Below are positions 4,355 through 48,230 of a stretch of DNA of 64,000 bases, piece by piece; positions within the stretch are counted from its first letter, which is position 1; every line of letters starts with the position of its first letter. The position numbers were made by a program, and so were the translations under genes. The notes beneath the pieces were generated by a model that saw only the letters and a list, made by a program, of their open reading frames with translations, had not been told where the DNA came from and did not search any database. The stretch is from Myxococcota bacterium. GTDB lineage: Bacteria > Myxococcota_A > UBA9160 > UBA6930. The stretch is taken from positions 1,344,001 through 1,408,000 of the forward strand of contig OZ245002.1 of assembly GCA_965223415.1 (NCBI GenBank), written 5' to 3'.

Positions 4355-4382
4355 GGCGGGAGGCTACCACGGCGGCCGTGGA

Positions 4383-5186: not shown

Positions 5187-5194
5187 CGCCGTGC

Positions 5195-5641
5195 CTAGAA
5201 GAGGAGGTGGACCAGGGATGCGATCGCCATCCAGACGGTGACGAGGAAGCCGACCATCCAGGTGATCGTGCGATGGGGCATCAGCCCCTTCTGGTAGGTC
5301 ACCATGTGGAAGATGCGTCCGAGGGGGAAGCCCAGGAAGCAGATCCAGAGCATCAGCGTGCTCGGCTGGGTGAGCGCATAGACGAAGCCCACCAGGGCGA
5401 AGGGCAGGCCGGCCTCGAGATCGTTCTGGTGGATGCGCCGGGCGCGCTCCACCTCCTCGTCGGGGACGGTCTTCGGCTCGAGATCCTGGAGGGTGTAGTC
5501 CTCGGGCGAAGCGAAGACGTTCTTCCGGATACGGATCGAGCTCACGACCATCCCGGTGGCCAGGGTCTTCAGAGCGACCACGATGCACGAGAGGGCCCAG
5601 GCCCGGATGGCGGCGTTCTCGAGCAGCTGCTCCCAGAGCAT
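5195..5641 (-). CDS. MAPEG family membrane protein (microsomal GST-like)
   Basis: Four hydrophobic segments; VFASPED and VERARRIHQNDLE motifs; GGAGG RBS. Confidence 0.88.
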   Translation of the reverse strand: MLWEQLLENAAIRAWALSCIVVALKTLATGMVVSSIRIRKNVFASPEDYTLQDLEPKTVPDEEVERARRIHQNDLEAGLPFALVGFVYALTQPSTLMLWICFLGFPLGRIFHMVTYQKGLMPHRTITWMVGFLVTVWMAIASLVHLLF

Positions 5642-5688
5642 GGCGGTCCTCCCCGCGAGATGGCGGCCACGCTAGCACGGGAGCGGCG

Positions 5689-6468
5689 TCAGACGTCGCG
5701 CTCGCGGCCTTCGGTGATCCTGCGCGTCACCGGGTCGCGCTTGCGGGGAAGCTCCGGACGCTCGCAATCGGCCGAGGCGTAGTGCGCCGAGATGGCGCGG
5801 CGGAAGCCCTCGGTCCGATTGTGACCGCTGCCGTGGAGGAGCAGGGGATGGAAGAGGAGCGTGTCGCCCGGCTCCATCTCCACGTGCACGCGATCCGCCA
5901 CGTCGACGTCGGCCGCGGCGAAGAAGCCGAAGTTCACGTGCTCCCAGTCCGGGTCGGCGTGCTTCCGGAGCTCGCCCCGATGGCTCCCGGGAAGCACGGC
6001 CAGGCAGCCGTTTTCCCGGGTACAGGGAACCAGGGCCGTCCACGTCCCGACGATCTTCCCGGCGGGCCGCAGGGCGAAATAGCGGAGGTCCTGGTGGATC
6101 GGATGGCGCGCGTCCACCCCTGGCGGCTTGTTGAAGACGTTCGTGGAGATCGTCATCAGCGAAGGGCCGATCAGCGAACGCACCGCGGCCAGGAGCCCCG
6201 GATCCTCCGCGTAGGCGAAGAGCTCCGGATCCTCCTCGAAGCTCAGGATCTTGTTGATCCCGTGCAGCGGCGTCTCCGGGACGACGACGCCCTTCGCGAC
6301 CATCACGTCCTGCATGAAGACCATGCGCGCGGGGCGGGGCACCCGGCCGAGGACCAGGTCCTCGAAGCGTTCCCCCCAGCGCGCCAGCCGCTCGGGAGCG
6401 AAGAAGCCGCGCAGCAGCAGGAAGCCGTCGCGTTCGTACTCCGCGACCTGCCCTGCGCCGAGACCCAT
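5689..6468 (-). CDS. Phytanoyl-CoA dioxygenase (PhyH) family 2OG-Fe(II) enzyme
   Basis: HPIHQDLRYF, ENGCLAVLPGSH, FHPLLLHGSGHN, RRAISAHY. Confidence 0.93.
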   Translation of the reverse strand: MGLGAGQVAEYERDGFLLLRGFFAPERLARWGERFEDLVLGRVPRPARMVFMQDVMVAKGVVVPETPLHGINKILSFEEDPELFAYAEDPGLLAAVRSLIGPSLMTISTNVFNKPPGVDARHPIHQDLRYFALRPAGKIVGTWTALVPCTRENGCLAVLPGSHRGELRKHADPDWEHVNFGFFAAADVDVADRVHVEMEPGDTLLFHPLLLHGSGHNRTEGFRRAISAHYASADCERPELPRKRDPVTRRITEGRERDV

Positions 6469-6511
6469 GGGCGCGAGGATAGGCCGGCTTGTGCCATGCT
6501 CGCCCCCTCAC

Positions 6512-7870
6512 ATGCCGGGACCCCGCGACTCCCTCGAGCCCGCCCGCCTCGAGCCGGCCCTGGTCGCCGCCTACTGCGTGCCGACCCTCGGGGTGAACTT
6601 CTCCCTGGTGCTCACCTTCGCCTACGTGGCGAAGTACGCGACGGACGTGCTGCTGATCGCGCCGGCGACCATGGGCCTGATCTTCGGGCTCTCGCGCATC
6701 TGGGACGCCGTGACGGACCCGGTCGTCGGGTTCTGGAGCGACGCGACGCGCAGCGCCCTGGGGCGCCGCCGGCCCTGGATCCTGGCCTCCGGGGTGCCGC
6801 TGGCGGTCTTCGGCCTGGCCCTGTGGGCGCCGCCGCGGAGCCTCGCCGGGGGAGCGCTCACCACCTGGTTCGCCGTGGCCTTCGTCGCCTACATGACGGC
6901 GACGACGGTCTTCAACGTCCCGCACATGGCGCTGGGCGCCGAGCTCAGCGACGCCCAACACCTTCGCACCCGTCTGTTCGGGCTGCGTCACGCCACCGCC
7001 ACCCTGGGCTCGGCACTGGCCCTCGTGCTCGGCACCACCCTCCTCGTGCGCGCGAGCGATCCGCGGGAGACAGCGCTCTGGCTCTTCTCGCTGATCGGCG
7101 CCCTGTGCATTGCAACCACAGCGCTGGCGGCGTGGCGGCTGCGGGAGCGCCCGGAGCACCGCGAGCGCGGCGGACGTCACCCATGGGCGGCGTTCCGCGA
7201 CGTCGTCCGCAACCCCCACGGACGCCTGCTCGTGACGATGTACTTCATCGAGCACATGGGCACCGGGGCGACCTCCGTGCTCTCGCCCTACATCCTGCAC
7301 TACGTGATCGGCGCTCCGGAGGCGCTGGGCCTGGTGTACGCGTTCTACACGGGAGCCCTGCTTCTCTCGATCCCGGTGTGGGTCGGTCTCGCTCGGCGGC
7401 TCGGAAAGAAGACCACCTGGCTGCTCGGCATGGCCACGGCCATGGTGGGCTACGCGAGCCTCTTCTTCGTCGGCGAGGGCACGCTCGCGCTGATGTGCGG
7501 CGTGGTCTGCCTCACCGGCTCGGCGGCGAGCTGCGGAACCGTCGTCGGCCCCTCGGTGCAGGCCGACGTGATCGACTGGGACGAGCACGCCACCGGCGAG
7601 CGCAAAGAAGGCTCCTACTACTCGACCTTCACCTTCCTGCAGAAGGCCTCGGCGGGCGTGATGGCCATGCTGACCGGCCTGGCGCTCCAGCAGGTTGGCT
7701 TCGAGCCGAACGTCGAGCAGGGAGACACGACCAAGCTGGTCATGCGCAGCCTGATCGCCCTGGTGCCGCTGGGCTGTTTCGTCGTCGGGGCGGCGATCTT
7801 CTCCCGCTTCCGTCTCACCGAGGACGTCCACGCCGCCATTCGCGCCGAGCTGGACGCCCGGAGAGGCTGA
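6512..7870 (+). CDS. MFS transporter, glycoside-pentoside-hexuronide (MelB-like) family
   Basis: WDAVTDPVVGFWSD, GRRRPWI, PHMALGAELS, ADVIDWDE..GERKEG; 12 hydrophobic segments. Start chosen at ATG 6512. Confidence 0.9.
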   Translation: MPGPRDSLEPARLEPALVAAYCVPTLGVNFSLVLTFAYVAKYATDVLLIAPATMGLIFGLSRIWDAVTDPVVGFWSDATRSALGRRRPWILASGVPLAVFGLALWAPPRSLAGGALTTWFAVAFVAYMTATTVFNVPHMALGAELSDAQHLRTRLFGLRHATATLGSALALVLGTTLLVRASDPRETALWLFSLIGALCIATTALAAWRLRERPEHRERGGRHPWAAFRDVVRNPHGRLLVTMYFIEHMGTGATSVLSPYILHYVIGAPEALGLVYAFYTGALLLSIPVWVGLARRLGKKTTWLLGMATAMVGYASLFFVGEGTLALMCGVVCLTGSAASCGTVVGPSVQADVIDWDEHATGERKEGSYYSTFTFLQKASAGVMAMLTGLALQQVGFEPNVEQGDTTKLVMRSLIALVPLGCFVVGAAIFSRFRLTEDVHAAIRAELDARRG

Positions 7871-7911
7871 ATCCCGTCAACTCGGGGGGCCGAACGGCCG
7901 ATCCAGCCCCC

Positions 7912-8634
7912 ATGGTGGGGCCCCCGGAGCGAAGGCAGACCCAGCGCGTCGCGCTGGCGGAGCCGATCTGGCTGCTCAGCTGGCGGGGGATCCAGCGGGC
8001 GACGCTGCGGGACGGAACCGCGGTTTCCCTGGGGCTGGCGGTCCGCGGGCGGTCCCCGGCGGCGGGGAGCCGGGCGATCGTGCTACTGCCGGGCGGCCCG
8101 GACCAGCTCCTCCCGGCGCCGGTCTTCGCCCGGATCGTGCGCGGCGCCGGCTCGGCAGGCCTGATCTTCACCTCGATTCCCCGCTCGTCGCGCCTCGCCC
8201 TGCAGGCGCTGCTCGACCGGGAGGCAACGGACACCCCGGCGGGCGAGTCCCAGGGCGGACCGCGTCGTCGCGCCGTGCGACGCCACTACAGCGTTCGGCT
8301 TGCGGCCCGGTCGGTCTGGCTCCCCCATGTGCTGGTCGCCCGGGATCTCTCGACGGAAGGGGTCCGGGTGCACGCCCTCCCCTGGGCCGCCGTGGGCAGC
8401 GAGCTGCGCATCTCGTTCCCGGTGCCCGGCGCGCCCTCGCCGATCTCCATCTCCGCCCGGGTCGCCCGCCACGACGGAGACGCGGGAACGATCCTCCGCT
8501 TCCATTCGGTCACACCGGAGGAGCGGGAGGGCCTGGACGGCCTGCTCGCCCTGTTGCCCGAGCTCCCGGACGGCCGTCGCGAGGGCGTCGCCTTGGCGGC
8601 CGTCGAGAACGACTACGACAGCGGCGCTGCCTGA
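7912..8634 (+). CDS. Putative tandem PilZ-domain protein
   Basis: ERRQTQRV and RRRAVRR (RxxxR) followed by RDLSTEGVRV (DxSxxG), ARIVR/ARVARH strands; overlaps the convergent gene by 22 bp. Confidence 0.6.
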   Translation: MVGPPERRQTQRVALAEPIWLLSWRGIQRATLRDGTAVSLGLAVRGRSPAAGSRAIVLLPGGPDQLLPAPVFARIVRGAGSAGLIFTSIPRSSRLALQALLDREATDTPAGESQGGPRRRAVRRHYSVRLAARSVWLPHVLVARDLSTEGVRVHALPWAAVGSELRISFPVPGAPSPISISARVARHDGDAGTILRFHSVTPEEREGLDGLLALLPELPDGRREGVALAAVENDYDSGAA

Positions 8635-10328
8635 GGCCCGCGAACCAGGCCCCCGGGCAGGGCCCCGGTGGGCTCGCCGTCCTCGTAGATGACCTCGCCG
8701 TTCTTGATCGTGTAGCGGTAGCCGTCGACCTTCTGGATCAGGCGCCGTCCGCCACCCGGGAGGTCGTAGACCATCTCGGGCGCGTGGATGTGCAGGCCGT
8801 CGAAGTCGATCACGTTCAGGTCGGCGCGCATGCCCGGCGCCAGGACGCCGCGATCCTCCATGCCGTAGAACGCGGCGGTGCGGCGGGTCTGCTGCTCGAC
8901 CAGGACCTCGAGGGGAATGCGATCGCCGCGATCGCGATCGCGCACCCAGTGGGTGAGCAGGAAGCTCGGCATGCTGGCGTCGCAGACGAGGCCGCAGTGG
9001 GCGCCGCCGTCGGAGAGACCGAAGACCGAGCGCTCGTGGAGCATCATCTCGCGGATCGGCTCCAGGTGGCCGTTCGCGTAGCCGAGCAGCGGCAGGTAGA
9101 GGAAGTCGCCGGCCAGCATCCGGTCGTAGGCGACCTCGGCGCCTTCGCGCCCCTCGCGCTCGGCGATGGCGGCGATGCTCTTCTCCGGGCCCGGCTCGTA
9201 GTCCGGCGGGTCGCCAAGGGGGAACATCATGTTCCAGGCGCTCGCGATGATCGCCGTCACGCCCGGGCGGCCCCGGAGATCCGGCTCGTCGGCCAGGATC
9301 GCCGCCCGCACCTCCGGCTCCGCCAGCTTCCGCCGCTTCTCCTCCCGCGGCAGGTTCCAGTAGGGATGGAACGCGGGCCGCAGCATGAAGGGGTGGAAGC
9401 TGCTCTCGAAGCCGAGCAGCAGCCCCGCCGGGCGCTGGGCCACCTGCGGGGTGAGGCAGCCGCCCTCGGCGGCGTCCTCGTCCACCACGGCCAGGAGCCG
9501 CTTCCACTGGTCGGGATCGGTCGGGTTCTGCAGGCAGGCGAAGGTGACGGGCCGGCCGGTCTCCTTGCCGAGCTGCCGCATCCAGCGAAGCTCCTCGCCC
9601 TCGGGCGCCAGATCGCTCGCCACCTCGAACACTCCGTGGCCCACCTCGCCTAGCGTGCGACCGATGCCGAGCACCTCTTCGTCCTCGGCGGTGGTGCCGG
9701 GCACGAGCTCGCCGTCCTTCGCCCGGTGCAGGATGGTGCGCGAAGTGGAGAAGCCCAGCGCGCCGGCCTGGAGGCCTTCCTTCACGATCGCCGCCATCTG
9801 CTCGATCTCTTCCGGCGTGGCCTTCTCGTTCTTCGCGCCGCGCTCGCCCATCACGTAGGCGCGCACCGCGCCGTGGGGGATCTGGGCCGCGACGTCGATC
9901 GCGCGGGGCATCTTCTCCACCGCGTCCAGGTATTCCGGGAAGCTCTCCCACTCCCAGTGGATGCCCTCGGCGAGCGCCGTGCCGGGGATGTCTTCGACGC
10001 CCTCCATGAGCTGGATCAGGAAGTCTTCCTGGCCCGGGTGCACCGGCGCGAAGCCCACGCCGCAGTTGCCCATCACCAGGGTGGTGACGCCATTCCAGCC
10101 GGAGGGCGTCAGGTAGGGATCCCAGGTGACCTGGCCGTCGTAGTGGGTGTGGATGTCGACCCAGCCGGGCGTGACGAGCTGGCCTTCGGCGTCGACCTCG
10201 CGACGGCCCGGGCCCACATCCTCACCGACGGCGACGATGCGATCACCGTCCATCGCCACGTCGGCGCGGCGCGCCGGCGCGCCGGTGCCGTCCACCACGA
10301 TTCCGCCACGGATCACGAGATCGTGCAT
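8613..10328 (-). CDS. N-acyl-D-amino-acid deacylase family amidohydrolase
   Basis: [67 protein letters not shown]. Confidence 0.93.
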
Positions 10329-16240: not shown

Positions 16241-16337
16241 GAACGTTCCTCGGAGGAGACCGGGGCCGCGAAGGTAGCGGTTTCGTGGCGATTCCGGGCG
16301 CCCTACCATCGGCGCCCCACGTCCGACCGGAGTGCCC

Positions 16338-18251
16338 ATGCGAACCCTCACGACCGTCCTGTCCCTTCCCTTTCTGGCCGCGGCCCTCGCCGCGGCGGCT
16401 ACCGAGGCCCCCTTCGAGCGCACCGAGGAACGGGAGACCTGCGTCGCCTACGACGAGAACCGCCGGCCCTTCTTCGGCGATAGCCACGTCCACACCGCCT
16501 ACTCCTTCGACGCCGGGAGTCAGGATACGCGCAACACGCCCCGGGACGCCTATCGCTTCGCCAAGGGCGGGGAGGTGGGGCTCCAGCCCTTCGCCCCGGA
16601 CGGCACCCCGACCCGCACCGCCCGGCTCGACCGGCCCCTCGACTGGACCGTGGTCACCGATCACGCGGAGGTCCTCGGCGAGGTCCGGGTCTGCCGCGAT
16701 CCGAGCGCCCCGGGCTACGACTCCGACTTCTGCTGGATCTACCGCGGCTTCGGGCCCCTGGCCATGAACCTGGTGGCCCTGCGGACCATCGTGGGCAAGG
16801 AGCGCTTCCAGTTCTGCGGCGAGGACGACGTGAGCTGCCTGAAGCAGGCCGCGGTGGTGTGGGGCGACATCCAGGCGGCGGCGGAAGAGGCCTACGATCG
16901 CAGCTCGGCGTGCTCCTTCACGAGCTTCGTCGGCTACGAGTGGACGGGCTCCCTCTCGGGCGGGCAGAACCTCCATCGCAACGTCGTCTTCCGCAACGAG
17001 AAGGTGCCGGACGTGGCGCCGAGCTGGGTCGACACGCCCTCGGCCTTCGCCCACTGGCAGCGGCTCGAGGCGGACTGCGTCCAGGGCAAGCCCGGCTGCG
17101 ACGCCATCACGATCCCCCACAACTCCAACCTGAGCGGACCGGGCCTGATGTTCGCATCGGCAAAGATCGAGAAGCCCGTGGACCTCGGGATTCCGGTGGA
17201 CGCGGAGGAAGCCACGCTGCGCCAGCGCTGGGAGCCGCTGATCGAGATCATGCAGCACAAGGGCGATTCCGAGTGCCTGATGAGCGGAGACACCAGCGAC
17301 GAGGCCTGCGGCTTCGAGAAGCTCCCCTACAACAGCTTCGCCGGCGTCGGGCGCTTCCGTCAGCTGAACCTCGGCGTGGATCTCGAACCCGACGCGCGCG
17401 GCATGGTGCGCGACGCGCTGAAGAAGGGGATCGCCCTGGAGGGGAAGCTCGGGGTGAACCCGCTCAAGTACGGGATCATCGCCAGCACCGACACCCATCT
17501 CGGCACGCCGGGGCTGGTCTCCGAGGCGAACTCGAAGGGCCACGGCGGCGCGGGGCTGCGCGCCCTGGCCGGCCTCCCCGACGACCTGGAGTTCAACCCG
17601 GGCGGCCTGGCGGTGCTCTGGGCCGAGGAGAACAGCCGCGACGCGCTGTTCGCCGCCATGCAGCGGCGCGAGGCCTACGGAACCAGCGGCACGCGTCCGG
17701 TAGTGCGCTTCTTCGGCGGCTGGGGATACGAAGCGGCCCTGTGCGAGGCCGAGGACTTCGCCGCCCGAGGCTACGCCGGCGGCGTGCCGATGGGTGGCGA
17801 CCTGCCGACGGCCCCGGAAGGCGCCAGCGCGCCGGCCTTCGCAGTGTGGGCGCTGCGCGACGCGGGAGCCGAGGCCTCCCCGCTCCAGCGCATCCAGGTG
17901 GTGAAGGGCTGGGTCGAGAACGGCGAGGTGCGCGAGCAGGTCTTCGACGTGGCGGGCGGGCCGAACGAGGCGAGCGTGGACACGTCCACCTGCGAGACGA
18001 AGGGCAGCGGCGCCGAGCAGCTCTGCTCGGTCTGGCGGGATCCGGGCTTCGATGCGGACCAGGCCGCTTTCTACTACGCGCGGGTGCTCGAGAACCCGAC
18101 CTGCCGCTGGAGCCAGGCCCTGTGCGTCGCAGCGAAGGTCGATTGCAGCGACCCGAAGCCCGGCTACGAGGCCTGCTGTGCCCCGGACCACGTGAAGACG
18201 CTGCAGGAGCGGGCCTGGACCTCGCCCATCTGGTACACGCCGGGCTCGTGA
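16338..18251 (+). CDS. DUF3604 family secreted PHP-like metallohydrolase
   Basis: Signal peptide; FFGDSHVHTAYSFDA, VTDHAE, GYEWT, LHRNV, IPHNSN, TDTH, YGTSG, QERAWTSPIWY. Confidence 0.9.
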   Translation: MRTLTTVLSLPFLAAALAAAATEAPFERTEERETCVAYDENRRPFFGDSHVHTAYSFDAGSQDTRNTPRDAYRFAKGGEVGLQPFAPDGTPTRTARLDRPLDWTVVTDHAEVLGEVRVCRDPSAPGYDSDFCWIYRGFGPLAMNLVALRTIVGKERFQFCGEDDVSCLKQAAVVWGDIQAAAEEAYDRSSACSFTSFVGYEWTGSLSGGQNLHRNVVFRNEKVPDVAPSWVDTPSAFAHWQRLEADCVQGKPGCDAITIPHNSNLSGPGLMFASAKIEKPVDLGIPVDAEEATLRQRWEPLIEIMQHKGDSECLMSGDTSDEACGFEKLPYNSFAGVGRFRQLNLGVDLEPDARGMVRDALKKGIALEGKLGVNPLKYGIIASTDTHLGTPGLVSEANSKGHGGAGLRALAGLPDDLEFNPGGLAVLWAEENSRDALFAAMQRREAYGTSGTRPVVRFFGGWGYEAALCEAEDFAARGYAGGVPMGGDLPTAPEGASAPAFAVWALRDAGAEASPLQRIQVVKGWVENGEVREQVFDVAGGPNEASVDTSTCETKGSGAEQLCSVWRDPGFDADQAAFYYARVLENPTCRWSQALCVAAKVDCSDPKPGYEACCAPDHVKTLQERAWTSPIWYTPGS

Positions 18252-19478: not shown

Positions 19479-21935
19479 CTAGGTGAGGGCGCCGGATTCG
19501 GCGAGGCGGGCCACGTCGTCGTCGGTGTAGCCCAGGTGCTCGGTGAGGACTTCGAAGGTGTGCTGGCCGATGGTGGGGCCGGCGTGGGTGGGGCGTGAGG
19601 GCGTGGCGGAGAAGCGCGTCACGGGGCCATCGAAGCGGATGCGGCCCATGCGCGGGTGGTCGAGCTCGACGAAGAAGTCCCGGGCCAGGAGCTGCGGATC
19701 CTCGTGGAGGTCGGTGGCGCGCATGACCACGTAGGAGGGGACCCCCTGCTCCCGGAGAGAGCGGGCGAGCGCGAAGGGCTCACGCTCAGCGCACCAGGCG
19801 GCGAGCGGCGCCTCGAGCTCGGCCTTCCGGGCGATGCGCGCCGGGAGCGCATCGAGGTCCGGCGTCGCGAGCGCGGCCAGGTCGGGAACCGCTCCGCACA
19901 GGGCACGCCATTGTTCCGGCGTCTCGGTGGCGATCGCCAGGTATCGCTCCGTGCCCTCGGCGGCAAAGACGCCGTGCGGGCAGGCTCGCGCCGAATCGTG
20001 TCCCGGCCGCTCCTGCACGCGTCCGTTCACCGTGTAGTCGAGCACCATCGGCTCGAGGAAGTGGATCGCCCCCTCGATCTGGGCAAAGTCGATGTATTGG
20101 CCCTCGCCGGTGCGGTCGCGGTGGTGGAGCGCCGCCCCCAGGGCCGCCAGGGAGTAGCGGGGTGCGATGAAGTCGGTGTAGGCGCCCCAGGGCCCCGAGG
20201 GCACGCGATCCGGCCAGCCCGTCACCGCGACGAAGCCCGCCAGACCCGCGCCCTGCAGGCCGAAGCCCGTGTAGGCGGCCTCCGGCCCGGTCTGGCCGCG
20301 CATGCACGAGGAGATCATCACCAGCTCCGGCTTGCGGCGCCGCAGGGTCTCGTAGTCGAGCCCGAGCTTCGCGGCGGAGCCGGGTGTGAAGCTCTCGGTG
20401 ACCACGTCCGCCCAGTCCACCAGCCGAAGCGCCACCTCGCGCCCTTCCGCGGTGGAGAGATCGAGGGCGAGGCCCAGCTTGGATTGATTGAAGTTCGCCA
20501 TGGCGTAGCCGGTGCTGACGTTCGGCACGCCGTCCTTCCAGGGCGGGATCATGCGAAGCGGGTCGACATGCTTCTCGCTCTCGACCCGAAGCACGGTGGC
20601 GCCGAGGTTCGCCAGGTCCTTCGACACCAGCGGGAGCGCACCGACCCAGGAGAAGTCGGCCACCTTGAGCCCTTCGAAGATCGAGGCGCGCGGCGCCGCC
20701 GAAACCCGGGCGGGAACCAGCGGAGGTCGATTCGCGCTCTCCACCAGCGCCTGGTGCTGGCCGAGGGCCGGCGCCTCCGCGCGGTACACGACCGGCGTCG
20801 CGGACAGCCGGGCGAAAGGCCCCGGGTGGGTCGTTCCCGCGACGTCGACCCAGTAGTCCCGGGAGGCGAGCTGCGGATCGCCCAGCAGGTCGGCGGCGCT
20901 CCAGGCGGGCCCGATCAACCACTTGCCGTCGTGCGCGCGCTGCTGGATCTCGGCCTTGGTGCAGGTGCCGAGGAACGCCACGAGCTGGTCGAAGGCCCTT
21001 GCGATGGCCGGCGGCGTGATCTTGCCCTGGCCGAGCAGCTCGAACATCACGCTCCAGTCGTGATCGGCGAGGTCGTCGTCGATGGCGCCGCTCTCTGCCG
21101 CCCAGCGCATCATCGAGCCGAAGCTGCGCGCGCCGACCTCGGCGAGCACGAGCGTCATTACGACGAAGCCGTCCTTGCAGGCGGCCCTGTCCGGCACCAC
21201 GACGCCGGGCAGGAGCTCCTGGGGTTGGCGACGGTTCTCGCCCGAGCCCGGCTGGTTGTCGCCCATCAGCACCGGGTAGCCCTCTGCGAAGAGCAGCGTC
21301 CACAGCACCGCGGCCTGGCAGGAGACGTCCAGGTGTTGGCCGCGTCCGTCGCGGTGACGACCGTAGAGGGCGAGGATCGCGTCGGCGGCGGCCTGGACGC
21401 CGGCGTGGTGGGAGGTCTCCGGGTGCCCGATCGGAACCGGCGGCCGGTCCCGGTCGCCCTGCAGGTTCACGAGCCCACCGGCGCACGCGAGGGTGAGGTC
21501 CGTGGCGGGGCTCTCCGCCTCGGGTCCGGTGCGTCCGAACGGGGTGACGGAGACGTAGAGGAGAGCGGGGTTCAGCGCGTGCAGCGCGTCGAAGCCGAGG
21601 CCCAGGCGGTCGAGGGAGCCCGGCGCGGAGGACTCGATCAGGATGTCGGCGCCCCGGACCAGCTCGAGGAGGCGATCGCGGTCGGCTTCGTCCTCGATGT
21701 CGAGCACGACGCTCTTCTTGCCGAGCCCCCACGCCCGCCAGAAGAGCGAGCCGTCCGGATCGCCTTCGCGCCCGTCCTCGAAGGGAGCCAGGAAGCGGGC
21801 CTCGCAGCCACTCGGCGGCTCGACCTTGATGACCTCGGCGCCGAGGTCCGCCAGCACGCGGCCGGTGGCTTCCGCCAGGGGGGTGGCGAGATCGATCACG
21901 CGAAGGCCCGCGAGGGCGCCGGCAGTGTCGGGCAT
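19479..21935 (-). CDS. Family III CoA-transferase (CaiB/BaiF), tandem two-domain
   Basis: LAGLRVIDL..LADLGAEVIKVEPP, second domain FEGLKVADFSWVGA, SITPFG/GQTGP motifs. Confidence 0.94.
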   Translation of the reverse strand: MPDTAGALAGLRVIDLATPLAEATGRVLADLGAEVIKVEPPSGCEARFLAPFEDGREGDPDGSLFWRAWGLGKKSVVLDIEDEADRDRLLELVRGADILIESSAPGSLDRLGLGFDALHALNPALLYVSVTPFGRTGPEAESPATDLTLACAGGLVNLQGDRDRPPVPIGHPETSHHAGVQAAADAILALYGRHRDGRGQHLDVSCQAAVLWTLLFAEGYPVLMGDNQPGSGENRRQPQELLPGVVVPDRAACKDGFVVMTLVLAEVGARSFGSMMRWAAESGAIDDDLADHDWSVMFELLGQGKITPPAIARAFDQLVAFLGTCTKAEIQQRAHDGKWLIGPAWSAADLLGDPQLASRDYWVDVAGTTHPGPFARLSATPVVYRAEAPALGQHQALVESANRPPLVPARVSAAPRASIFEGLKVADFSWVGALPLVSKDLANLGATVLRVESEKHVDPLRMIPPWKDGVPNVSTGYAMANFNQSKLGLALDLSTAEGREVALRLVDWADVVTESFTPGSAAKLGLDYETLRRRKPELVMISSCMRGQTGPEAAYTGFGLQGAGLAGFVAVTGWPDRVPSGPWGAYTDFIAPRYSLAALGAALHHRDRTGEGQYIDFAQIEGAIHFLEPMVLDYTVNGRVQERPGHDSARACPHGVFAAEGTERYLAIATETPEQWRALCGAVPDLAALATPDLDALPARIARKAELEAPLAAWCAEREPFALARSLREQGVPSYVVMRATDLHEDPQLLARDFFVELDHPRMGRIRFDGPVTRFSATPSRPTHAGPTIGQHTFEVLTEHLGYTDDDVARLAESGALT

Positions 21936-40722: not shown

Positions 40723-42864
40723 ATGCGACGTGCCGCCCCTCTCCTCCTGGCCCTTCTCCTGGCCAGCTCCTGCGGCGAGCACCTGGGCCCCGGTACACCC
40801 GCGCAGACGCCGCGCCCGAAGCTCCCCGAGGCGGAGGGCGCACAGATCCTCTTCGGCGACCTTCACACCCACACCCACTTCTCCCTCGACGCCTGGGCCG
40901 TGAACCTGCCCGTCCTCGGAGGCGAAGGGGCCCACCCTCCCGCCGACGCTTGCGACTTCGCGCGCTACTGCGCGGCCCTCGACTTCTGGAGCATCAACGA
41001 TCACGCCGAGGGCCTGACGCCCCGCCATTGGGACGAGACCCGCCGGGCGGTGCGCGACTGCAACGCGGTGACCGACCCGGCCAATCCGGACCTCGTCACC
41101 TTCCTCGGCTGGGAGTGGACCCAGGTCGGGACCGAGCCGGCCAATCACTTCGGCCACAAGAACGTGGTGCTGCGCCACGTCGACGATGCCCGCGTACCGC
41201 CGCGGCCGATCAGCGCCCTTCGCCCGGAATTCCGCGAGAGCCCGATCCCACCGGCGGTGCGCTTCGTCCTGCCGATCGCGGACTTCGCGAACCGCGCCTA
41301 CTACTTCGACTGGGTGAAGCGCTTCGAGGAGACGAACGCCACTCCCCTCTGCGAGCCGGGCGTGGACACGCGGGAGCTCCCGACGGACTGCCTCGAGTTC
41401 GCGAACGAGCCGCGCACCCTGTTCGAGAAGCTCGCCCAGTGGGGCGGCGAGGCCCTGGTGATTCCCCACGGCACGACCTGGGGGCTGATGACGCCACCAG
41501 CGAGCGAGATCGGCATGCAGCTGGCCGGTGGCCAGCACGATCCGACCCGACAGAAGCTGTTCGAGATCTACTCGGGCCACGGCAGCGCCGAGGAGTACCG
41601 CCCGTGGCGAGCCGACGTACGCGACGAAGCGGGCCGGCCCGTCTGCCAGGAGCCGACGCCGGGCTACCTGCCCTGCTGCTGGCGGGCCGGGGAGATCATC
41701 CGCGAACGGTGCGACGATCCGACGTCCGCGGCCTGCGAGGAGAAGGCCCGGGAGGCCCGCCGTCACTTCGCCGAGGCCGGCGTGGGCGGTTACCGCACGA
41801 TCGCCGGCGTCAGCGCCGCGGACTGGCTCGATTGCGGCCAATGCCGGGACTGCCCCCTCTCGGTGATGGACCACCGCCCCGCCATGTCCGCCCAGGCCGC
41901 GCTCGCCGAGGGAGCGCCGACCGGGGACGGCGCGCCCGGTCGCTTCCGCTTCGGATTCCTCGGCAGCAGCGACACCCACAAAGCGCGGCCCGGCAACGGC
42001 TACAAGGAGACCGCCCGCTCCCGGATGACCGACTCGATGGGGAAGATGAGCGACTTGCTAGGCGGCGAGGAGGAGCCGGCGGACGCGTCGCGGGAGGTCG
42101 TCCTCGCCGAGTTGCCGCTGCAGCAGCGCCGCTACATCGAGCGGCAGAGCTCCTTCTACGTCACCGGCGGACTCGTCGCCGTGCACGCCGCGGACCGGAC
42201 GCGGGACGGCATCTGGGAGGCGCTCGTGGAGCGGCGGGTGTATGGAACCTCCGGTCCACGCATCCTGCTCTCCTTCGAGCTCCTGAACGGGCCCGCGGGC
42301 CCGCGGCCCATGGGCTCGGAGGTCGAGACTGGCGCCGTACCCCGTTTCCGGGTCTCCGCCTCTGGCGCCCGCAAGCAGAAGCCCGGCTGCCCGGCCCACG
42401 CCGAGGCCGCCCTCGGCCCGGCGCGCCTCGAGACCCTGTGCGCCGGAGAGTGCTTCCATCCGGGCGACGAGCGCTGGCGCATCGAGGCCGTGGAGGTGGC
42501 CCGGATCCGCCCCCGCGTTTCTGCGACGGAGGACCTGGCCGAGCTGATCGACGACCCCTGGCGGATCCTCCCCTGCCCGCCGGCCCCGGATGGCTGCCGG
42601 GTCGAGTTCGAGGATCCGGAGTATCCGGGGCTCGGCCGCGAGGTCGTCTACTACGTGCGCGCGCTCCAGGAGCCGACGCCGGCGATCGGCGCCGACCCCA
42701 CCGGCTGCGAGCGAGACGCGGAGGGCCGCTGCCTCTCCGTGCGGCTGTGCGGCGACGACCCGGACGACCCGGACGACCCGGACTGCCTCTCCCCCGTGGC
42801 CGAGCGAGCCTGGTCCTCGCCGATCTTCCTGACGCCCGGGCATTCGCCGAACGCACTAGAGTGA
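40723..42864 (+). CDS. DUF3604 family lipoprotein
   Basis: Lipobox LASSC; FGDLHTHTHFSLDA, INDHAE, GWEWT, IPHG, SSDTH, YGTSG, ERAWSSPIF. Confidence 0.9.
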   Translation: MRRAAPLLLALLLASSCGEHLGPGTPAQTPRPKLPEAEGAQILFGDLHTHTHFSLDAWAVNLPVLGGEGAHPPADACDFARYCAALDFWSINDHAEGLTPRHWDETRRAVRDCNAVTDPANPDLVTFLGWEWTQVGTEPANHFGHKNVVLRHVDDARVPPRPISALRPEFRESPIPPAVRFVLPIADFANRAYYFDWVKRFEETNATPLCEPGVDTRELPTDCLEFANEPRTLFEKLAQWGGEALVIPHGTTWGLMTPPASEIGMQLAGGQHDPTRQKLFEIYSGHGSAEEYRPWRADVRDEAGRPVCQEPTPGYLPCCWRAGEIIRERCDDPTSAACEEKAREARRHFAEAGVGGYRTIAGVSAADWLDCGQCRDCPLSVMDHRPAMSAQAALAEGAPTGDGAPGRFRFGFLGSSDTHKARPGNGYKETARSRMTDSMGKMSDLLGGEEEPADASREVVLAELPLQQRRYIERQSSFYVTGGLVAVHAADRTRDGIWEALVERRVYGTSGPRILLSFELLNGPAGPRPMGSEVETGAVPRFRVSASGARKQKPGCPAHAEAALGPARLETLCAGECFHPGDERWRIEAVEVARIRPRVSATEDLAELIDDPWRILPCPPAPDGCRVEFEDPEYPGLGREVVYYVRALQEPTPAIGADPTGCERDAEGRCLSVRLCGDDPDDPDDPDCLSPVAERAWSSPIFLTPGHSPNALE

Positions 42865-42903: not shown

Positions 42904-43701
42904 ATGCCCCTGCACCGCTTCCTCGGTATCGAGATCGGCGTGCCGGAGCCCGCGATCCTGGAGGCCTGCTACCGGGAGATCGGCCTCGAAGGGGGCTCCG
43001 GCCTCTGGGGAACCGCCGACGTGTCGGGCCAGATCCGGATCGAGGAGACCCGGGTACGCCGGCTCCTCGCCATGCGCGTCGGCTGCCATGACGAAGCGGA
43101 CCTCGACCGCATCGCCAGACGACTCGACGGCCTCGGCGCCAAGCACCAGCGCGGCGACGGCAAGCTGCGCGCCACCGACCCGGTCAACGGATGGGACGTG
43201 GTCGTGGAGCCGGCGCCGCGGATGGACCTCACGGTCCAGCCGCCCCGGATCCTGAACGGGCCGAGCAGTCGCGGCCGACAGGGCAGCCGTGCCGAGCCCG
43301 TCGTGCAGCGCGAGGCCCCGCGGCCGCCGCGACGCCTGGGCCACTGCGTGGTCGGCACCCACGACCCGCTGAAGACCGCCGAGTTCATGCTCGACGGCAT
43401 CGGCTACCGCCTGACCGACAAGATCGCCGGCGGCGCTGCCCAGTTCATGCGCTGCTCCTCCGACCACCACAACCTGCTGATCGCCCCGGGCCCCTGCCCC
43501 CACCTCAACCACTACGCCTTCGAGCAGGACGACATCGACGGCGTCGGTCACGCCGCCTCCCGCTACCTCCGCGAGCACCCGGACCGCGACATCTCGGGCA
43601 TCGGCCGCCACGTGATCGGCTCCAACGTCTTCTGGTACATGCTCGACCCAAGCGGAAACATGTTCGAGTTCTTCACCGACATGGACTGCATCACCGACGA
43701 C
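42904..43701 (+). pseudogene. Two-domain VOC / extradiol-dioxygenase-like gene, 5' part, interrupted by IS256
   Basis: RRLGHCV, SDHHNL, GRHVIGSN.FWY..DPSGNMFE; the frame enters the IS at ITDD and stops at 43755; the native tail resumes at 46258. Confidence 0.88.
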
Positions 43702-43793
43702 GGATCCGCCCCGAGTTCCGTGGAAATTGTGAGGTGGCGTAACCTTCCGAGCTGACAAAGCAAATCGCCGAGAAGGCGATGGAGGGCTACGCC

Positions 43794-44999
43794 ATGAACG
43801 AGGGTATCACGAACGAGGCCGAGGTGATCCGGCTGCGGCAGGACATCCAGGGGTTCTTGCGGCGCCGGGTGCTTGAAGCGGTCCAGGTGGTGCTGGAGGA
43901 GGAGCTGGACGAGGCCCTGGGAGCCCGTCGCTACGCACGAAGCGAGCAGCGGCGGGGCACCCGCAACGGTCACCAGGCGAGGCGGATCACGACCTCGCTG
44001 GGGACGGCGACGCTCGAGGTGCCGCGAGGCCGGATCGCCCTGGAGGACGGATCGAGCCGCGAGTTCCAAAGCCAGGTGCTCTCGCGCTACCAGCGCCGGA
44101 CCCGGGACGTCGATGAAGCGATCCTCGGGGCGTACCTCGCTGGGGCGAACACGCGGCGCATCCGCAAGGCGCTGTCCCCTCTGCTCGGGGAGGAGCATCT
44201 GTCGAAGAGCGCGGTCTCGCGGGTCGCGGCGCGTCTCAGGGAGCACTTCGCTGCGTGGAGCTGCCGGGACCTTTCGGAGGAGAGCTGTCGAGTGCTCTTC
44301 CTCGACGGCCTGCACTTGAAGGTGCGGCTTGCCCGGCGCGTGGTGAGCGCCCCGGTGCTCGCCGTGCTGGGCGTGGCCGACGATGGCACGAAGCGCCTCG
44401 TGGGCCTGGAGCTGGCGCTCAGCGAGGCGAGCGAGCACTGGGGTCGCGTGGTGCGGGATCTCCAGCGACGCGGGCTTCCGAGTCCGGCTCTCCTCGTCAC
44501 CGACGGCCACGCGGGCCTCGCCAAGGCGCTGGAGGCCTGGCCGGAGACGAAGGTGCAGCGCTGTACCGTGCACAAGTGGGCGAACCTCGCGTCGCACTGC
44601 CCCGTGCATGCGCGGCGCGAGATGAAGCGCGACTACGACGCCATCATCTATGCCGAGGACGGTATGCGGGCCCGCGAGGCCTACGCAGCCTTCGTGCGGA
44701 AGTGGACGCCGCTGTGCCCCAAGGCGGTGGCGAGCCTGGAGGAAGCCGGAGAGCGACTGCTCACGTTCACGGCCTTCCCGAAGGCGCTGTGGAAAGCGAT
44801 TCGCACGACCAACTCCATCGAGAACCTGAACCGGGAGTTTCGGCGCAGGACGAAGACGCAGGCCTCGTTCTCGAGCGAGGAGGCCGCTGTGGCACTCCTC
44901 TACGGCCCCGTGGCCTTCGGGCAGATCCCGATGAATCGGATCGCCGGCTACGAGCGGCTCCACAAGCTCGAAAGGCCCGTGGCTCAGGAGGCCGCATGA
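43794..44999 (+). CDS. IS256-family (Mutator-like) DDE transposase
   Basis: RNG..R, VPR, FLDG, VTDG, QRCTVH, RTTNSIENLNREFRRRTK; GGAGG RBS before ATG 43794. Confidence 0.96.
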   Translation: MNEGITNEAEVIRLRQDIQGFLRRRVLEAVQVVLEEELDEALGARRYARSEQRRGTRNGHQARRITTSLGTATLEVPRGRIALEDGSSREFQSQVLSRYQRRTRDVDEAILGAYLAGANTRRIRKALSPLLGEEHLSKSAVSRVAARLREHFAAWSCRDLSEESCRVLFLDGLHLKVRLARRVVSAPVLAVLGVADDGTKRLVGLELALSEASEHWGRVVRDLQRRGLPSPALLVTDGHAGLAKALEAWPETKVQRCTVHKWANLASHCPVHARREMKRDYDAIIYAEDGMRAREAYAAFVRKWTPLCPKAVASLEEAGERLLTFTAFPKALWKAIRTTNSIENLNREFRRRTKTQASFSSEEAAVALLYGPVAFGQIPMNRIAGYERLHKLERPVAQEAA

Positions 45000-45105
45000 A
45001 CCCTGGTTACGCGGGCACGCCCAACGGCTCGCCCGGGAGCTGCGCCTCGTCGTCGCTGGTCGCAGGCGGTTGAACGGCCTGGGCCCGAGGCGGTAGTCTC
45101 GGGCC

Positions 45106-46104
45106 ATGTCCTCGAAAAAGCGTCGCGCCCAGAAGAGAGCTCGAACGAAGAAGCAGAGTCCGCAGAAGAGGGGAACCTCCTCGCCCGACCGGCGACAAGC
45201 CTCCACATCGGATCCCATCGTCACGGGTTTCGAAACCGAACAGCTCATGCGGAAGGTCCATCGGGCCATGGGGGACCGGGAGTTCGAGTCCACGGCGGAT
45301 CTCCAGGAGTTCCTGAACGGCTTCATGGGGAAACCGATCGATGAGATCGTCTTCGAGAACGAGAGCGATTCCGAGCGCGCACAGCAGCTCGTGTACGAGG
45401 CCTTCGAGGTCTTCCCTTCGGAGAAGGCAGTGGCGCTCGCGAGGCAGGCGCTCGCGCTCGATGACGGATGCGTCGATGCGCAGGTGATGCTGGCCCAGCT
45501 CTCCGGATCCTCTCAGGACGACTACGCGATGGAGCTCGAGGGGATCGTCTCGTCCGCGGAGGCTCGGCTCGGGCTCACCCTCGAAGAAGAGGCCGGACAC
45601 TTCTGGGGCATCCTCGAGACGCGCCCCTACATGCGGGCCTGCATGGAACTCGCGTTCGCGCTCTGGCGATCGGGACGTGAGGCGGAGGCCTGCGAACGCC
45701 TGGCGCGCATGCTCGAGCTCAACCCCAACGACAATCAAGGGGTCCGCGGCACGCTCGTGGGGTGGCGGCTGGCGACGGGCGATGTGGCTGGGGCGCGCTG
45801 CGTGCTCGATCAGTACAGCGACTCGGGCGAGGCGGTGCTCGCCTGGGGTCGGGTCCTTGCGTGCTGGATGGCCGACGATCTGCTCGCGGCAGCCGGCGCG
45901 CTCGAGGTCGCCCGCAAGTCGAATCCGCACGCCGAGCGCTACTTTAACGGTTGCTCGGACTGCCCCGAGGAGGGACCTGACTCCTACTCGCCTGGGGAGG
46001 AGAGCGAAGCAGTGGTGTGCGCGATGGACCTTGGTCAAGCCTGGCACCGGCAGCCCACGGCTCGGCTCTGGCTCCGCCAACAGGCCTCTGCGGAGCTCCA
46101 CTGA
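45106..46104 (+). CDS. ST7-like tetratricopeptide-repeat protein (IS passenger)
   Basis: AQQLVYEA, LARQAL..D..CVDA, FWGILETRPYMRA, LELNPNDNQGVR; own candidate promoter TTGAAC-18-TAGTCT-6-ATG. Confidence 0.75.
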   Translation: MSSKKRRAQKRARTKKQSPQKRGTSSPDRRQASTSDPIVTGFETEQLMRKVHRAMGDREFESTADLQEFLNGFMGKPIDEIVFENESDSERAQQLVYEAFEVFPSEKAVALARQALALDDGCVDAQVMLAQLSGSSQDDYAMELEGIVSSAEARLGLTLEEEAGHFWGILETRPYMRACMELAFALWRSGREAEACERLARMLELNPNDNQGVRGTLVGWRLATGDVAGARCVLDQYSDSGEAVLAWGRVLACWMADDLLAAAGALEVARKSNPHAERYFNGCSDCPEEGPDSYSPGEESEAVVCAMDLGQAWHRQPTARLWLRQQASAELH

Positions 46105-46257
46105 GTCCCTGAAGTGCTCTGCGCGACTCCCAGAGAGCCGCTCCCCACGACGAGACGCTATGTCCCGCGGTGGCAAGGCGAGCCGGTTGGCTATCGTCCG
46201 GCTTCAACCGTCAGCTCGATAGGCTACGCCAAAGTCCACAGGAATCGGGACGGGTCC

Positions 46258-46394
46258 CCGACGACGACGCCTGGGAAGTCGGCGACTGGGGCCCCGAGTG
46301 GAGCACCTGGGGACCGCCGGAGCCCCCGGAAGTGTTCTTCCAGATGAGCGACCTGGCGGAGCTGGGGAAGGACTGGGAGAGCCGGAAGGCGTAG
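46258..46394 (+). pseudogene. 3' remainder of the interrupted VOC gene
   Basis: DDDAWEVGDWGPEWSTWGPPEPPEVFF...RKA-stop, a typical W-rich WGP tail for this VOC type, in frame once the IS and one TSD are removed. Confidence 0.88.
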
Positions 46395-46553
46395 GGCCAG
46401 CCCTGCTTCGAGAGGGAGTCCGGCTAGGAAGCGGGGATCTCCACTGGATCGAACCCCGGCCCTGCCTTGCGCCAGCCCGTGCTGAGGGCCGGGCGGAAGC
46501 CGGGGCCGAGCCCGAACGCGCCCCCATCCCAACCGAACCCGAGCCCGCCTCCG

Positions 46554-48230
46554 CTACGGCCGTCCGTCTCCGCAAGCCACTCTCCGCTCGTCTCGCTCGA
46601 CCTCCACGGCGATCCCCCGTCCCTCGGCGTCACACACCACCGCCGCTGCGAAGCCCCGCCCGACCCGTCTACGAAGCGCCTCCCAGCTCTCCCGGCCAGC
46701 TCCCTCCGCGAAGAACGGCACCGCCTCGTACCCCCAGGTCCGATGCAGCAAGGCGATGCGCCGCCACCGCTGCACGGCCGCGATCATGTCGCCCTTCCCG
46801 AGGGCCTCCCAGAGCGCCTCCTCGTGGACCGCCGCCCCCGGCAGCACCAGCGTTGCCGCCACCCGCCGGTTCTCCGCATCCCACGCTCGGCGCGCCGCTT
46901 CGAGGGGGCGGAACCGTTCCGGCGCCGTCGGGAAGACGTCGCGGGTCTCACCGGGATCCGCGCCCAGGTCGAATCCCTCCACCCGTGCCGCGCGCCCATC
47001 CTCCCCGGGCCACCACAAGAGCTTGCGATCCCGGCTGCGCACCGCGACGACGCGCCGTTGCATCTCTCGCTTCGGGGTCGTCCAACCCTTGCGCGTGGTC
47101 TGCAGGAAGACGTACTCACGCGCCGCCTCGGCGCGCCCGTCGACGAGGGGTGCGAGGCTCACGCCCTGCATGGCGGGCATCACGCTGGCGGTCGGGACGC
47201 CCAGCCACTCGAAGAGGGTCGGCATGAGATCGACGCCCTGCACGAGGGCGTCGCTTCGGCCGGCGACCGGCGTGTTTCCGCGGAGGCTCTCGGGCAGGCG
47301 CACGACGAGGGGGATGCGCACGAGCTCGTCGTAGAGCTTGCCGTCATAGCCGGTGGAGGCGTGCCCGACCCAGCCGTGCTCGAGGAGCTCCTCACCGTGG
47401 TCGGCGGAGACGATGACGATGGTGCGCTCGAGGAGCCCGGTCTCGCGGAGGGCGGTGAAGGCGCGCCCGAGGTGGTCGTCGGCATCCCGCACGGTCTCGT
47501 CGTAGAGCGCGCGAATCGCTTCCGCGTCGCCGGGAACGAAGGCGATCTCTCCGGGGTGGGAGAAGCCCACCTGCGGGATCGGGGGACGGAGCACGAGGTA
47601 GTGCTCGCTCACAGCGCGGAAGCCCGGCGTCGAAGGGCGCTCGGCGAGGAAGCGCCCCGCGTTGCGCTCCGAAGGCTGGTAGGGGAGATGAGGCTCCTTG
47701 CTGTGGAGCCAGGCGAAGAAGGGCTTCTCCTCGGGCAGGGCGGCACGCTCTCGCACGAAGCGCTCGAAGTCGGTGGGGCCGAGCTCGGTCTCGATGCCGA
47801 GCCCGCCGTAATTCGCGCCGCGGCCGCTGTGGCCCAGCACTTCGTAGCCACGCCCGGCGAGCACGCGCAGGGGCGCCGCCAGGGCGTCGTCGTAGGCACT
47901 GTGCCGGCCGTTCTGGGCGTGGACCGGCGGGTAATAGCCCGTCAGCATCGAGACGATGCCGGGACTGGTCCAGGCGGACGTGGCGAAGGCGTTCTCGAAC
48001 ACGAACGCCTCGCGGGCGAAGGCCTCGAGCTGCGGCGTGGTGGGGCGCGCGTAGCCGTGGAGGCCGGTGTGGTCCGGGCGCAGGCAGTCGACGGTGAGGA
48101 GCAGGACGTTGGGGGCCACCGGGGCGCCCCAGGCGGGAGGGGCGAGAAGGAAGGCCACCGCCAGCAGCCATCGGGATCGGGTCGTCCCGCGCGAGACCCT
48201 CGCCGATCGCGTTGCGCCCCGAGCCGCCAC
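46554..48230 (-). CDS. Secreted sulfatase-like hydrolase/transferase (alkaline phosphatase superfamily)
   Basis: PNVLLLTVDCLRPDH, AWTSPG..SMLTG, SADHGE, RIPLVVR, VDLMPTL, DPGE. Confidence 0.88.
   Translation of the reverse strand: MAARGATRSARVSRGTTRSRWLLAVAFLLAPPAWGAPVAPNVLLLTVDCLRPDHTGLHGYARPTTPQLEAFAREAFVFENAFATSAWTSPGIVSMLTGYYPPVHAQNGRHSAYDDALAAPLRVLAGRGYEVLGHSGRGANYGGLGIETELGPTDFERFVRERAALPEEKPFFAWLHSKEPHLPYQPSERNAGRFLAERPSTPGFRAVSEHYLVLRPPIPQVGFSHPGEIAFVPGDAEAIRALYDETVRDADDHLGRAFTALRETGLLERTIVIVSADHGEELLEHGWVGHASTGYDGKLYDELVRIPLVVRLPESLRGNTPVAGRSDALVQGVDLMPTLFEWLGVPTASVMPAMQGVSLAPLVDGRAEAAREYVFLQTTRKGWTTPKREMQRRVVAVRSRDRKLLWWPGEDGRAARVEGFDLGADPGETRDVFPTAPERFRPLEAARRAWDAENRRVAATLVLPGAAVHEEALWEALGKGDMIAAVQRWRRIALLHRTWGYEAVPFFAEGAGRESWEALRRRVGRGFAAAVVCDAEGRGIAVEVERDERRVACGDGRP

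Follow-up and report, generated by a model that had tools for sequence, protein, structure and literature searches.

Where does an IS256-family insertion sequence (IS) end when an unrelated gene lies between its transposase and the only right end that can be recognized? This question is raised by a locus in a Myxococcota bacterium (assembly GCA_965223415.1, contig OZ245002.1), of which the 64,000 nucleotides from position 1,344,001 to 1,408,000 were analyzed. This stretch is called the window, and coordinates are counted from its first letter unless a locus in another genome is named. A gene for an IS256-family transposase and a gene for a 332-residue tetratricopeptide repeat (TPR) protein are found here side by side, inside an interrupted gene that resembles extradiol dioxygenases. 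The whole 2556-bp segment was inserted in a single transposition event. Structurally, the element is read here, with a probability of roughly 0.8, as an IS256-family transporter IS (tIS), which harbors a single cargo gene and moved as a unit.

Element boundaries and insertion scar

The element takes up positions 43702 to 46257 and is flanked on both sides by the exact 8-mer CCGACGAC, which represents the target site duplication (TSD). A 9-bp TSD with a 2555-bp element can be read equally well, since base 43702 is a G and the right flank also continues with a G; the 8-bp reading was chosen because it makes the tips of the element more symmetrical (GGA...TCC). From base composition, an exact 8-nt flanking repeat is expected at a rate of 5.7e-5 per interval, and one is found at five of the 61,428 window intervals of 2556 bp, the real one included.

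The two ends of the element form an imperfect pair of terminal inverted repeats (TIRs), and their inverted alignment spans about 55 nt. In the terminal part, about 21 of 28 alignment columns match by manual count, after which the left end has six extra nucleotides. This part is followed by a subterminal 22-nt block (43735–43756 against 46210–46231) that is 86% complementary and contains the two mirrored 10-mers noticed by an earlier reader. When 60-nt models of the two ends were compared with 5112 window tiles from both strands, each model scored highest, apart from itself, against the opposite end (18 and 20, with runners-up at 15 and 13), and a degenerate pattern of the 22-mer with up to three mismatches occurs in the window at the two element ends only (expected 0.00). 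The right tip (46257) lies 1258 bp beyond the transposase stop (44999), with the gene for the TPR protein in between. Self-BLAST finds no second copy of the element in the 64-kb window. A search of plasmid DNA gives five weak partial matches to the element, with 67–72% identity over 5–14% of the query, and plasmid transposases could not be used for a comparison of ends because the best of them are only 41–44% identical in protein.

Evidence for the extent of the element also comes from the gene that it interrupts. The 266-residue N-terminal part of the target gene was searched against 1.84 billion representative proteins, and the full-length homologs have 304–318 residues. The best of them (P0241, 311 residues, 58% identical) is matched by the N-terminal part over its residues 1–266. 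Catechol 2,3-dioxygenase-type NCBIfam models match this part weakly, every one of them below its cut-off. When 42904–43701 is joined to 46266–46394 in a script, a single open frame of 308 residues results, and its junction is free of gaps in an alignment with eight homologs (...DMDCITDD followed by DAWEV... in the joined frame, ...DMDRIVDD followed by EAWEI... in P0241). The 42-residue C-terminal part alone matches residues 267–311 of P0241 (E 1.7e-5), 265–306 of P0242, and 276–314 of P0244. The gapless restoration of the target means that the 2556 bp came in one event that duplicated 8 bp, and that the TPR gene cannot be DNA that was resident at the insertion site. The mobility as a unit that characterizes a tIS is visible in the TSD at the outer ends and in the empty site reconstructed in silico.

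An initial annotation, made from the sequence alone, had described an exact 8-bp TSD, a mirrored subterminal motif, a right TIR 1.26 kb past the transposase and beyond a 332-aa gene, a seamless restoration of the target gene, and a movement of the whole 2556 bp as one unit. Each of these points is borne out by the results above. Its suggestion that the insertion is recent is plausible and fits the identical TSD copies and the intact open reading frames (ORFs) of both target halves. The extradiol-dioxygenase-like gene itself is inactivated by the insertion. A chimeric assembly join that placed an IS and an unrelated gene inside the dioxygenase gene can be dismissed with near certainty, as a misjoin would not give ends that match in inverted orientation and an exact 8-bp duplication, nor rejoin the interrupted gene in frame and without a gap.

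Transposase, leader, and the DNA between the two genes

The transposase matches PF00872 (E 3.8e-89, profile positions 15–366 of 379) and the IS256 family transposase model NF033543 (314.6 bits, cut-off 150), and the sister models ISH6, IS1249, and ISKra4 all stay under their cut-offs. With the one pair of ends, these matches agree with the annotated content, in which one TIR pair encloses a single IS256-family transposase gene and a single gene unrelated to it. Residues D176 (LFLDG), D242 (VTDGH), and E348 (NSIENLN) are invariant in all 12 aligned transposase sequences, and we take them to be the catalytic DDE triad on the basis of family motifs, IS256 itself standing outside the alignment. 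In its length and its C terminus the protein equals the aligned relatives. M6 is invariant in the 12 aligned relatives, most relatives have 401 residues, and a GGAGG Shine–Dalgarno-like site (43781–43785) lies 8 nt upstream of the corresponding ATG, so that 43794 is likely the true start.

No convincing internal end, whether similar to the left (IRL-like) or to the right inverted repeat (IRR-like), was found in local and semi-global scans of the element with both end models. When the interior was scanned in 120-nt tiles, the top scores for IRR-like and IRL-like sequence were 22–29, inside the general spread, and did not fall beside the transposase stop. Near this stop the right-end model scores 10, a value reached by 1.4% of the 5112 tiles, and the left-end model reaches 2 (34%). 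The finding named beforehand as one that would speak against a cargo-carrying unit was a second right TIR immediately behind the transposase; no convincing end of this kind is seen, the best score at this place being 10 compared with 18–20 at the true ends. A weak gapped similarity connects 44943–44999, the 3′ end of the transposase gene, with 46198–46257 in the right end (score 10, which is reached by 2.3% of shuffles).

This similarity could be a decayed inner end and would then fit a two-step or nested origin. In such an origin, an IS256 element of the ordinary kind, about 1.3 kb long, would lie beside a host TPR gene and an unrelated solo right end, a miniature inverted-repeat transposable element, or a composite remnant, and the 2556 bp would never have moved as a unit. 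The existence of composite IS256 transposons such as Tn4001, in which two IS256 copies flank resistance genes, also counts for it. Tn4001-type transposons show that IS256-type transposases can move DNA whose left and right ends are more distant than in the IS itself. A nested origin is nevertheless very improbable. The 8-bp duplication flanks the outer ends, and deletion of the 2556 bp with one repeat copy restores the gapless dioxygenase-like ORF, so the TPR gene is not resident host DNA; furthermore, nothing IRL-like or IRR-like is conspicuous in the interior, and no second transposase fragment was found. A Tn4001-like composite was rejected on similar grounds, as the element differs from this type by its single transposase gene and its one pair of ends, and neither a second IS copy (self-BLAST) nor an internal end (end-model scans) was found.

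For a tIS that moves as a unit, the following course can be proposed. The transposase would bind both element ends, as is known of IS256, and the segment would be copied out as a circle with abutted ends, which would subsequently be pasted into an 8-bp staggered cut. Guerillot et al. 2014 (PMC3942029) describe both circular intermediates and 8–9-bp duplications for this superfamily. Since the only usable right end lies beyond the TPR gene, every transposition event would carry this gene along.

The leader of the transposase gene may contribute to its control. The 10-mer TGGCGTAACC in the left end is complementary to GGCTACGCCA, which overlaps the GGAGG site and the ATG at 43794, and a stem is predicted that would hide the ribosome site. 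The predicted RNA fold of 43702–43830 has −55.8 kcal/mol compared with −39.4 ± 3.8 kcal/mol for shuffled sequences (z = −4.3), and none of 200 shuffles is as stable. In other IS, fold-back inhibition of transposase translation is known. By analogy, the stem probably hides the ribosome site of the transposase in transcripts that enter from outside and thereby damps translation. The pairing of the 10-mers may reflect such a fold-back block or an extra transposase-binding site. The degenerate 10-mer TGGCGTARCC occurs four times in the window (expected 0.13), and three of these copies are in the element ends. The fourth copy, TGGCGTAGCC at 20501–20510, is located within a CoA-transferase gene, has flanks unlike IS ends, and probably arose by chance.

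The TPR gene is probably co-transcribed with the transposase gene, judging from their common strand, the short spacer, and the lack of a predicted promoter or terminator between them. The sole terminator-like site predicted in 43600–46400 lies on the minus strand upstream of the transposase (43764–43780) and is at chance level, and Rfam gives no match in 43000–47000 at E up to 1. The G+C content at third codon positions is 0.885 in the transposase gene, 0.82 in the cargo gene, and 0.89–0.94 in host genes; such small differences do not reveal where either gene came from. The features of the locus are collected in Table 1.

Table 1. Features of the element and of the interrupted gene, in window coordinates.
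Feature	Position	Strand	Description
Target gene, N part (vicinal-oxygen-chelate/extradiol-dioxygenase-like)	42904–43701	+	266 codons; PF00903, E 5e-10; homologs of 304–318 aa
Left TSD copy	43694–43701		CCGACGAC; exact repeat
Left inverted repeat (IRL)	43702–43756	+	Terminal part of ~27 nt from GGATCC, 6 extra nt, subterminal 22-mer TGGCGTAACCTTCCGAGCTGAC (43735–43756); from end alignment and 22-nt block
Transposase leader	43734–43796	+	10-mer TGGCGTAACC (43735–43744) complementary to GGCTACGCCA (43785–43794)
IS256-family DDE transposase	43779–44999	+	Longest ORF 406 aa from ATG 43779; likely start ATG 43794 (401 aa)
Transposase–cargo spacer	45000–45105	+	106 bp, 74.5% G+C; no recognizable IS end in end-model scans
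Passenger gene (TPR protein)	45106–46104	+	332 aa; intact ORF, 106 bp downstream of transposase on the same strand
Right inverted repeat (IRR)	46210–46257	−	Terminal part closing ...GGGTCC at 46257; subterminal 22-mer 46210–46231; from end alignment and 22-nt block
Right TSD copy	46258–46265		CCGACGAC; exact repeat
Target gene, C part	46266–46394	+	42 codons and stop; in frame after removal of the element and one TSD copy

The surroundings are an ordinary chromosomal region with genes for DUF3604 proteins, a sulfatase, amidohydrolases, glutathione S-transferases, CoA-transferases, acyl-CoA enzymes, and transport, and no other mobile-element gene was found among 43 further window ORFs that were scanned. 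The window holds two DUF3604-family genes (16332–18248 and 40723–42861), the second of which lies directly upstream of the interrupted dioxygenase-like gene.

The passenger protein and its family

The passenger protein takes on a generic TPR architecture. Pfam assigns TPR_19 and TPR_14 only, both barely over the cut-off, and no NCBIfam model reaches its cut-off, the only one listed being PrsT with 19.7 bits against 312. The AlphaFold model is all-helical with 15 helices (pLDDT 83.8) and has a disordered, basic N terminus. In a fold search of the Protein Data Bank the model retrieves generic TPR solenoids only, with a designed consensus TPR as the best match (E 5.4e-4), and Atlas clusters that match the protein at 0.95–0.98 are labeled TPR_14, TPR_19, and ST7. 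Among the scored candidates, 896 homologs are found at E up to 0.001, the closest being 78–81% identical. A family alignment of 26 sequences has 28 invariant columns and displays the motifs ETRPYMRA and LNPNDNQG, and the N terminus is conserved in P0004, P0006, and P0007. The cargo gene is intact and under conservation at the protein level. The protein belongs to a widespread ST7-like bacterial TPR family, of which it shares both the core motifs and the TPR fold. No match to the family was found in PADLOC and PHROGs.

Longer relatives of about 600–650 residues (P0391–P0510) have the TPR module fused to DUF7309 and DUF6930 or to a SEC-C motif, and in P0391 and P0395 it is fused to a HARE-HTH domain. 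At one genomic locus (L062, 1354–3330), the TPR match is followed immediately downstream by a DUF7309/DUF6930 ORF. Our best guess is that the cargo binds proteins as an adaptor, to the benefit of the mobile element or its host.

The genomic settings of the family were surveyed by a scan that confirmed at least 589 relatives in representative genomes of many phyla. The best 80 of these loci, with 33–45% identity to the cargo, were taken further: from the 2.5 kb to either side of the homolog, the longest ORF was scanned with Pfam (77 ORFs upstream and 73 downstream). The neighbor counts are raw and have no background rate, so that any enrichment is a lead and not a statistic. In about 20 of the 80 loci, the homolog lies beside restriction-modification, other defense-type, or mobile-element genes. 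Restriction-modification neighbors are found in 10 loci: the gene order is HsdR–TPR–HsdM in L006 and L007 and HsdS–TPR–HsdR in L048, the neighbor is HsdR in L020, a methylase in L021, and a BsuBI/PstI endonuclease in L066, and a type IIG enzyme lies upstream in L033, L034, L035, and L077 (three of these four, L033, L034, and L077, were rescanned with PADLOC and matched its type IIG models). Other defense-type neighbors occur in at least five loci, namely SIR2_2 in L014 and L017, AbiEii with nSTAND in L064, Fic in L022, and RRXRR-HNH in L030. Recombinase or transposase genes are neighbors in five loci (L063, L067, L071, L072, and L073). The remaining loci represent housekeeping or unannotated settings (gyrA, SMC, dnaN, serS, secA, rho, and others). 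A tblastn search with the window transposase found no IS256 transposase within 6 kb of the TPR homolog at any of the 80 loci.

Other vehicles of the family are seen on transposons and plasmids. Locus L071 holds, at 1155–9113, a 7,959-bp Tn3-family unit that is bounded by 36-nt inverted repeats (1155–1190 and 9078–9113) and contains a Tn3-type transposase (TnpA), a TPR homolog, and a tyrosine recombinase. It shares 7.68 kb at 99.4% identity with L072 (174–7853). The two metagenome-assembled genomes are labeled Gemmatimonadaceae and Thermomicrobiales, and the identity reflects either a recent transfer between phyla or a binning error. The core of the cargo (residues 88–329) is furthermore found at 32–36% identity on 442 plasmids. 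Most of these come from Enterobacteriaceae, Klebsiella accounting for 216, and the homologs are annotated as hypothetical or TPR proteins (e.g., L081:5929–6732 and L082:5905–6777). In pNL1, the TPR homolog adjoins vapBC, a Fic gene, and two tyrosine recombinases.

Two readings give the TPR protein a more specific task than that of cargo. According to the first, it is a factor that assists or regulates the transposon, for instance as an adaptor in the choice of targets or the control of the transposase. The proximity of the two genes on one strand is consistent with such a factor, as are the nature of TPR folds as protein-binding scaffolds, the recurrence of the family in other mobile elements, and the disordered basic N terminus of the model, which could touch nucleic acid. 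This role is nevertheless improbable, as the family occurs overwhelmingly without an IS256 transposase (none near the homolog at the 80 loci) and often in the housekeeping settings named above, with gyrA, SMC, dnaN, serS, or secA. The domains fused to the longer relatives are not transposition domains either, and close relatives of the transposase appear to manage without a TPR gene. According to the second reading, which is a rather doubtful one, the conserved TPR family of about 330 residues serves mobile elements and defense islands as a dedicated accessory gene that perhaps modulates restriction-modification or other immunity or aids the establishment of the element. It would then use at least three vehicles (an IS256-type tIS, a Tn3-family transposon passed recently from one phylum to another, and plasmids in the hundreds), and the element in the window would be the first of the IS256 family to have become a dedicated carrier of such a gene.

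Relation to the IS256 family and to other transporter elements

In most of its properties the element is a regular member of the IS256 family: it has the transposase type, the conserved DDE residues, imperfect TIRs of some tens of bp, and a TSD of 8–9 bp. It is atypical in that the transposase is not the sole gene and the length exceeds the usual 1.2–1.5 kb, with 2556 bp and a second intact ORF of 332 residues. Canonical IS256 of Staphylococcus and Enterococcus (p-MULT 1 in PMC3942029) shares the Mutator/IS256-type DDE transposase of about 400 residues, the imperfect TIRs, and the 8-bp TSD. A circular intermediate, inferred for the window element, is presumably common to both. The window element differs in its second, unrelated gene, placed after the transposase and before the right end, and in its length, which is about 1.2–1.5 kb in the canonical element. 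In PMC3942029, all 109 surveyed elements with IS256-type transposases have IS organization, and the families IS256 and ISH6 are stated to "contain only ISs."

The layout of an unrelated TPR gene between the transposase and IRR, with one TIR pair and one transposase, is that of a tIS, as defined in PMC3129680. In the tIS of IS1595, IS66, and IS1202, one or more passenger genes are likewise moved within a single TIR pair by the transposase of the element, and the transposase family is a different one. The IS1202 group includes three tIS according to a 2023 paper (PMC10132070). No tIS of the IS256 family was found in the full-text literature searched, which describes tIS for IS1595, IS66, and IS1202 and has ISfinder and subscription papers outside its scope. 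The Tn3-family transposon of L071 and L072 also carries the cargo family inside an inverted-repeat-bounded unit (35% identity to the window protein), and differs as a vehicle in its Tn3-type transposase, its tyrosine recombinase, and its size of 7,959 bp.

Whether the element stands for a larger group is a separate matter. The initial annotation had inferred a cargo-carrying IS256 subgroup, and this part of it is not supported by the comparison with relatives. The 119 closest transposase relatives among the matches listed are 67–75% identical, and only the longest contig per cluster is listed for them. This longest contig is shorter than the element (2556 nt) in 97 of the 119 and shorter than 1800 nt in 63, with a median of 1747 nt. 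Such short contigs fit ordinary repeated IS of about 1.3–1.5 kb in metagenome assemblies. An established, widespread IS256 subgroup that regularly carries TPR or other cargo would, on the other hand, be in line with the 22 relatives whose longest listed contig has at least 2556 nt (e.g., P0122, with 27 members and a contig of 3465 nt). It would also fit the nine closest cargo homologs, which form a distinct group among the scored candidates (56–81% identical, with no other above 45%). Metagenome contigs of 1171–2806 nt, as would be expected of repeated elements about 2.6 kb long, encode five of the nine. The longest-contig sizes of these nine equal none of those listed for the 119 transposase relatives, which is a weak test, as it compares longest contigs only, among the best 120 hits listed. 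Together with the single copy in the window, the lack of IS256 transposases at the 80 TPR loci, the short contigs, and the plain IS organization of all elements in the survey cited above, this makes such a subgroup unlikely. For most of the transposase relatives the inference of a subgroup is unlikely to be right, and capture of the cargo appears to be specific to a lineage and not a trait shared by a large IS256 subgroup.

Several points weigh against the reading of the element as a tIS that captured its cargo once and moved as a unit. Its mobility rests on one insertion scar, with a single copy seen and an empty site that exists in silico only, and the weight of the finding is moderate because of this single copy. 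The similarity at 44943–44999 may have arisen by chance or be the decayed remainder of an ancestral right end; in the latter case the element may have had a history of more steps than a simple cargo insertion. With regard to expression, no sigma-70-like promoter is predicted in 43600–46400 and hence none in the element. The argument from contig size is indirect, each cluster being represented by its longest contig alone, and some of the nine closest cargo homologs could be sister tIS copies, which would favor a subgroup.

Members of the IS256 family are treated as plain IS. As a tIS with its insertion scar, the element carries the blurred border between IS and transposons into another large family. 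It also serves as a warning, as automated IS annotation would end the element after the transposase. Its cargo points to a widespread, uncharacterized TPR family that is found near restriction-modification systems, on transposons, and on plasmids, and that is a candidate for functional study.

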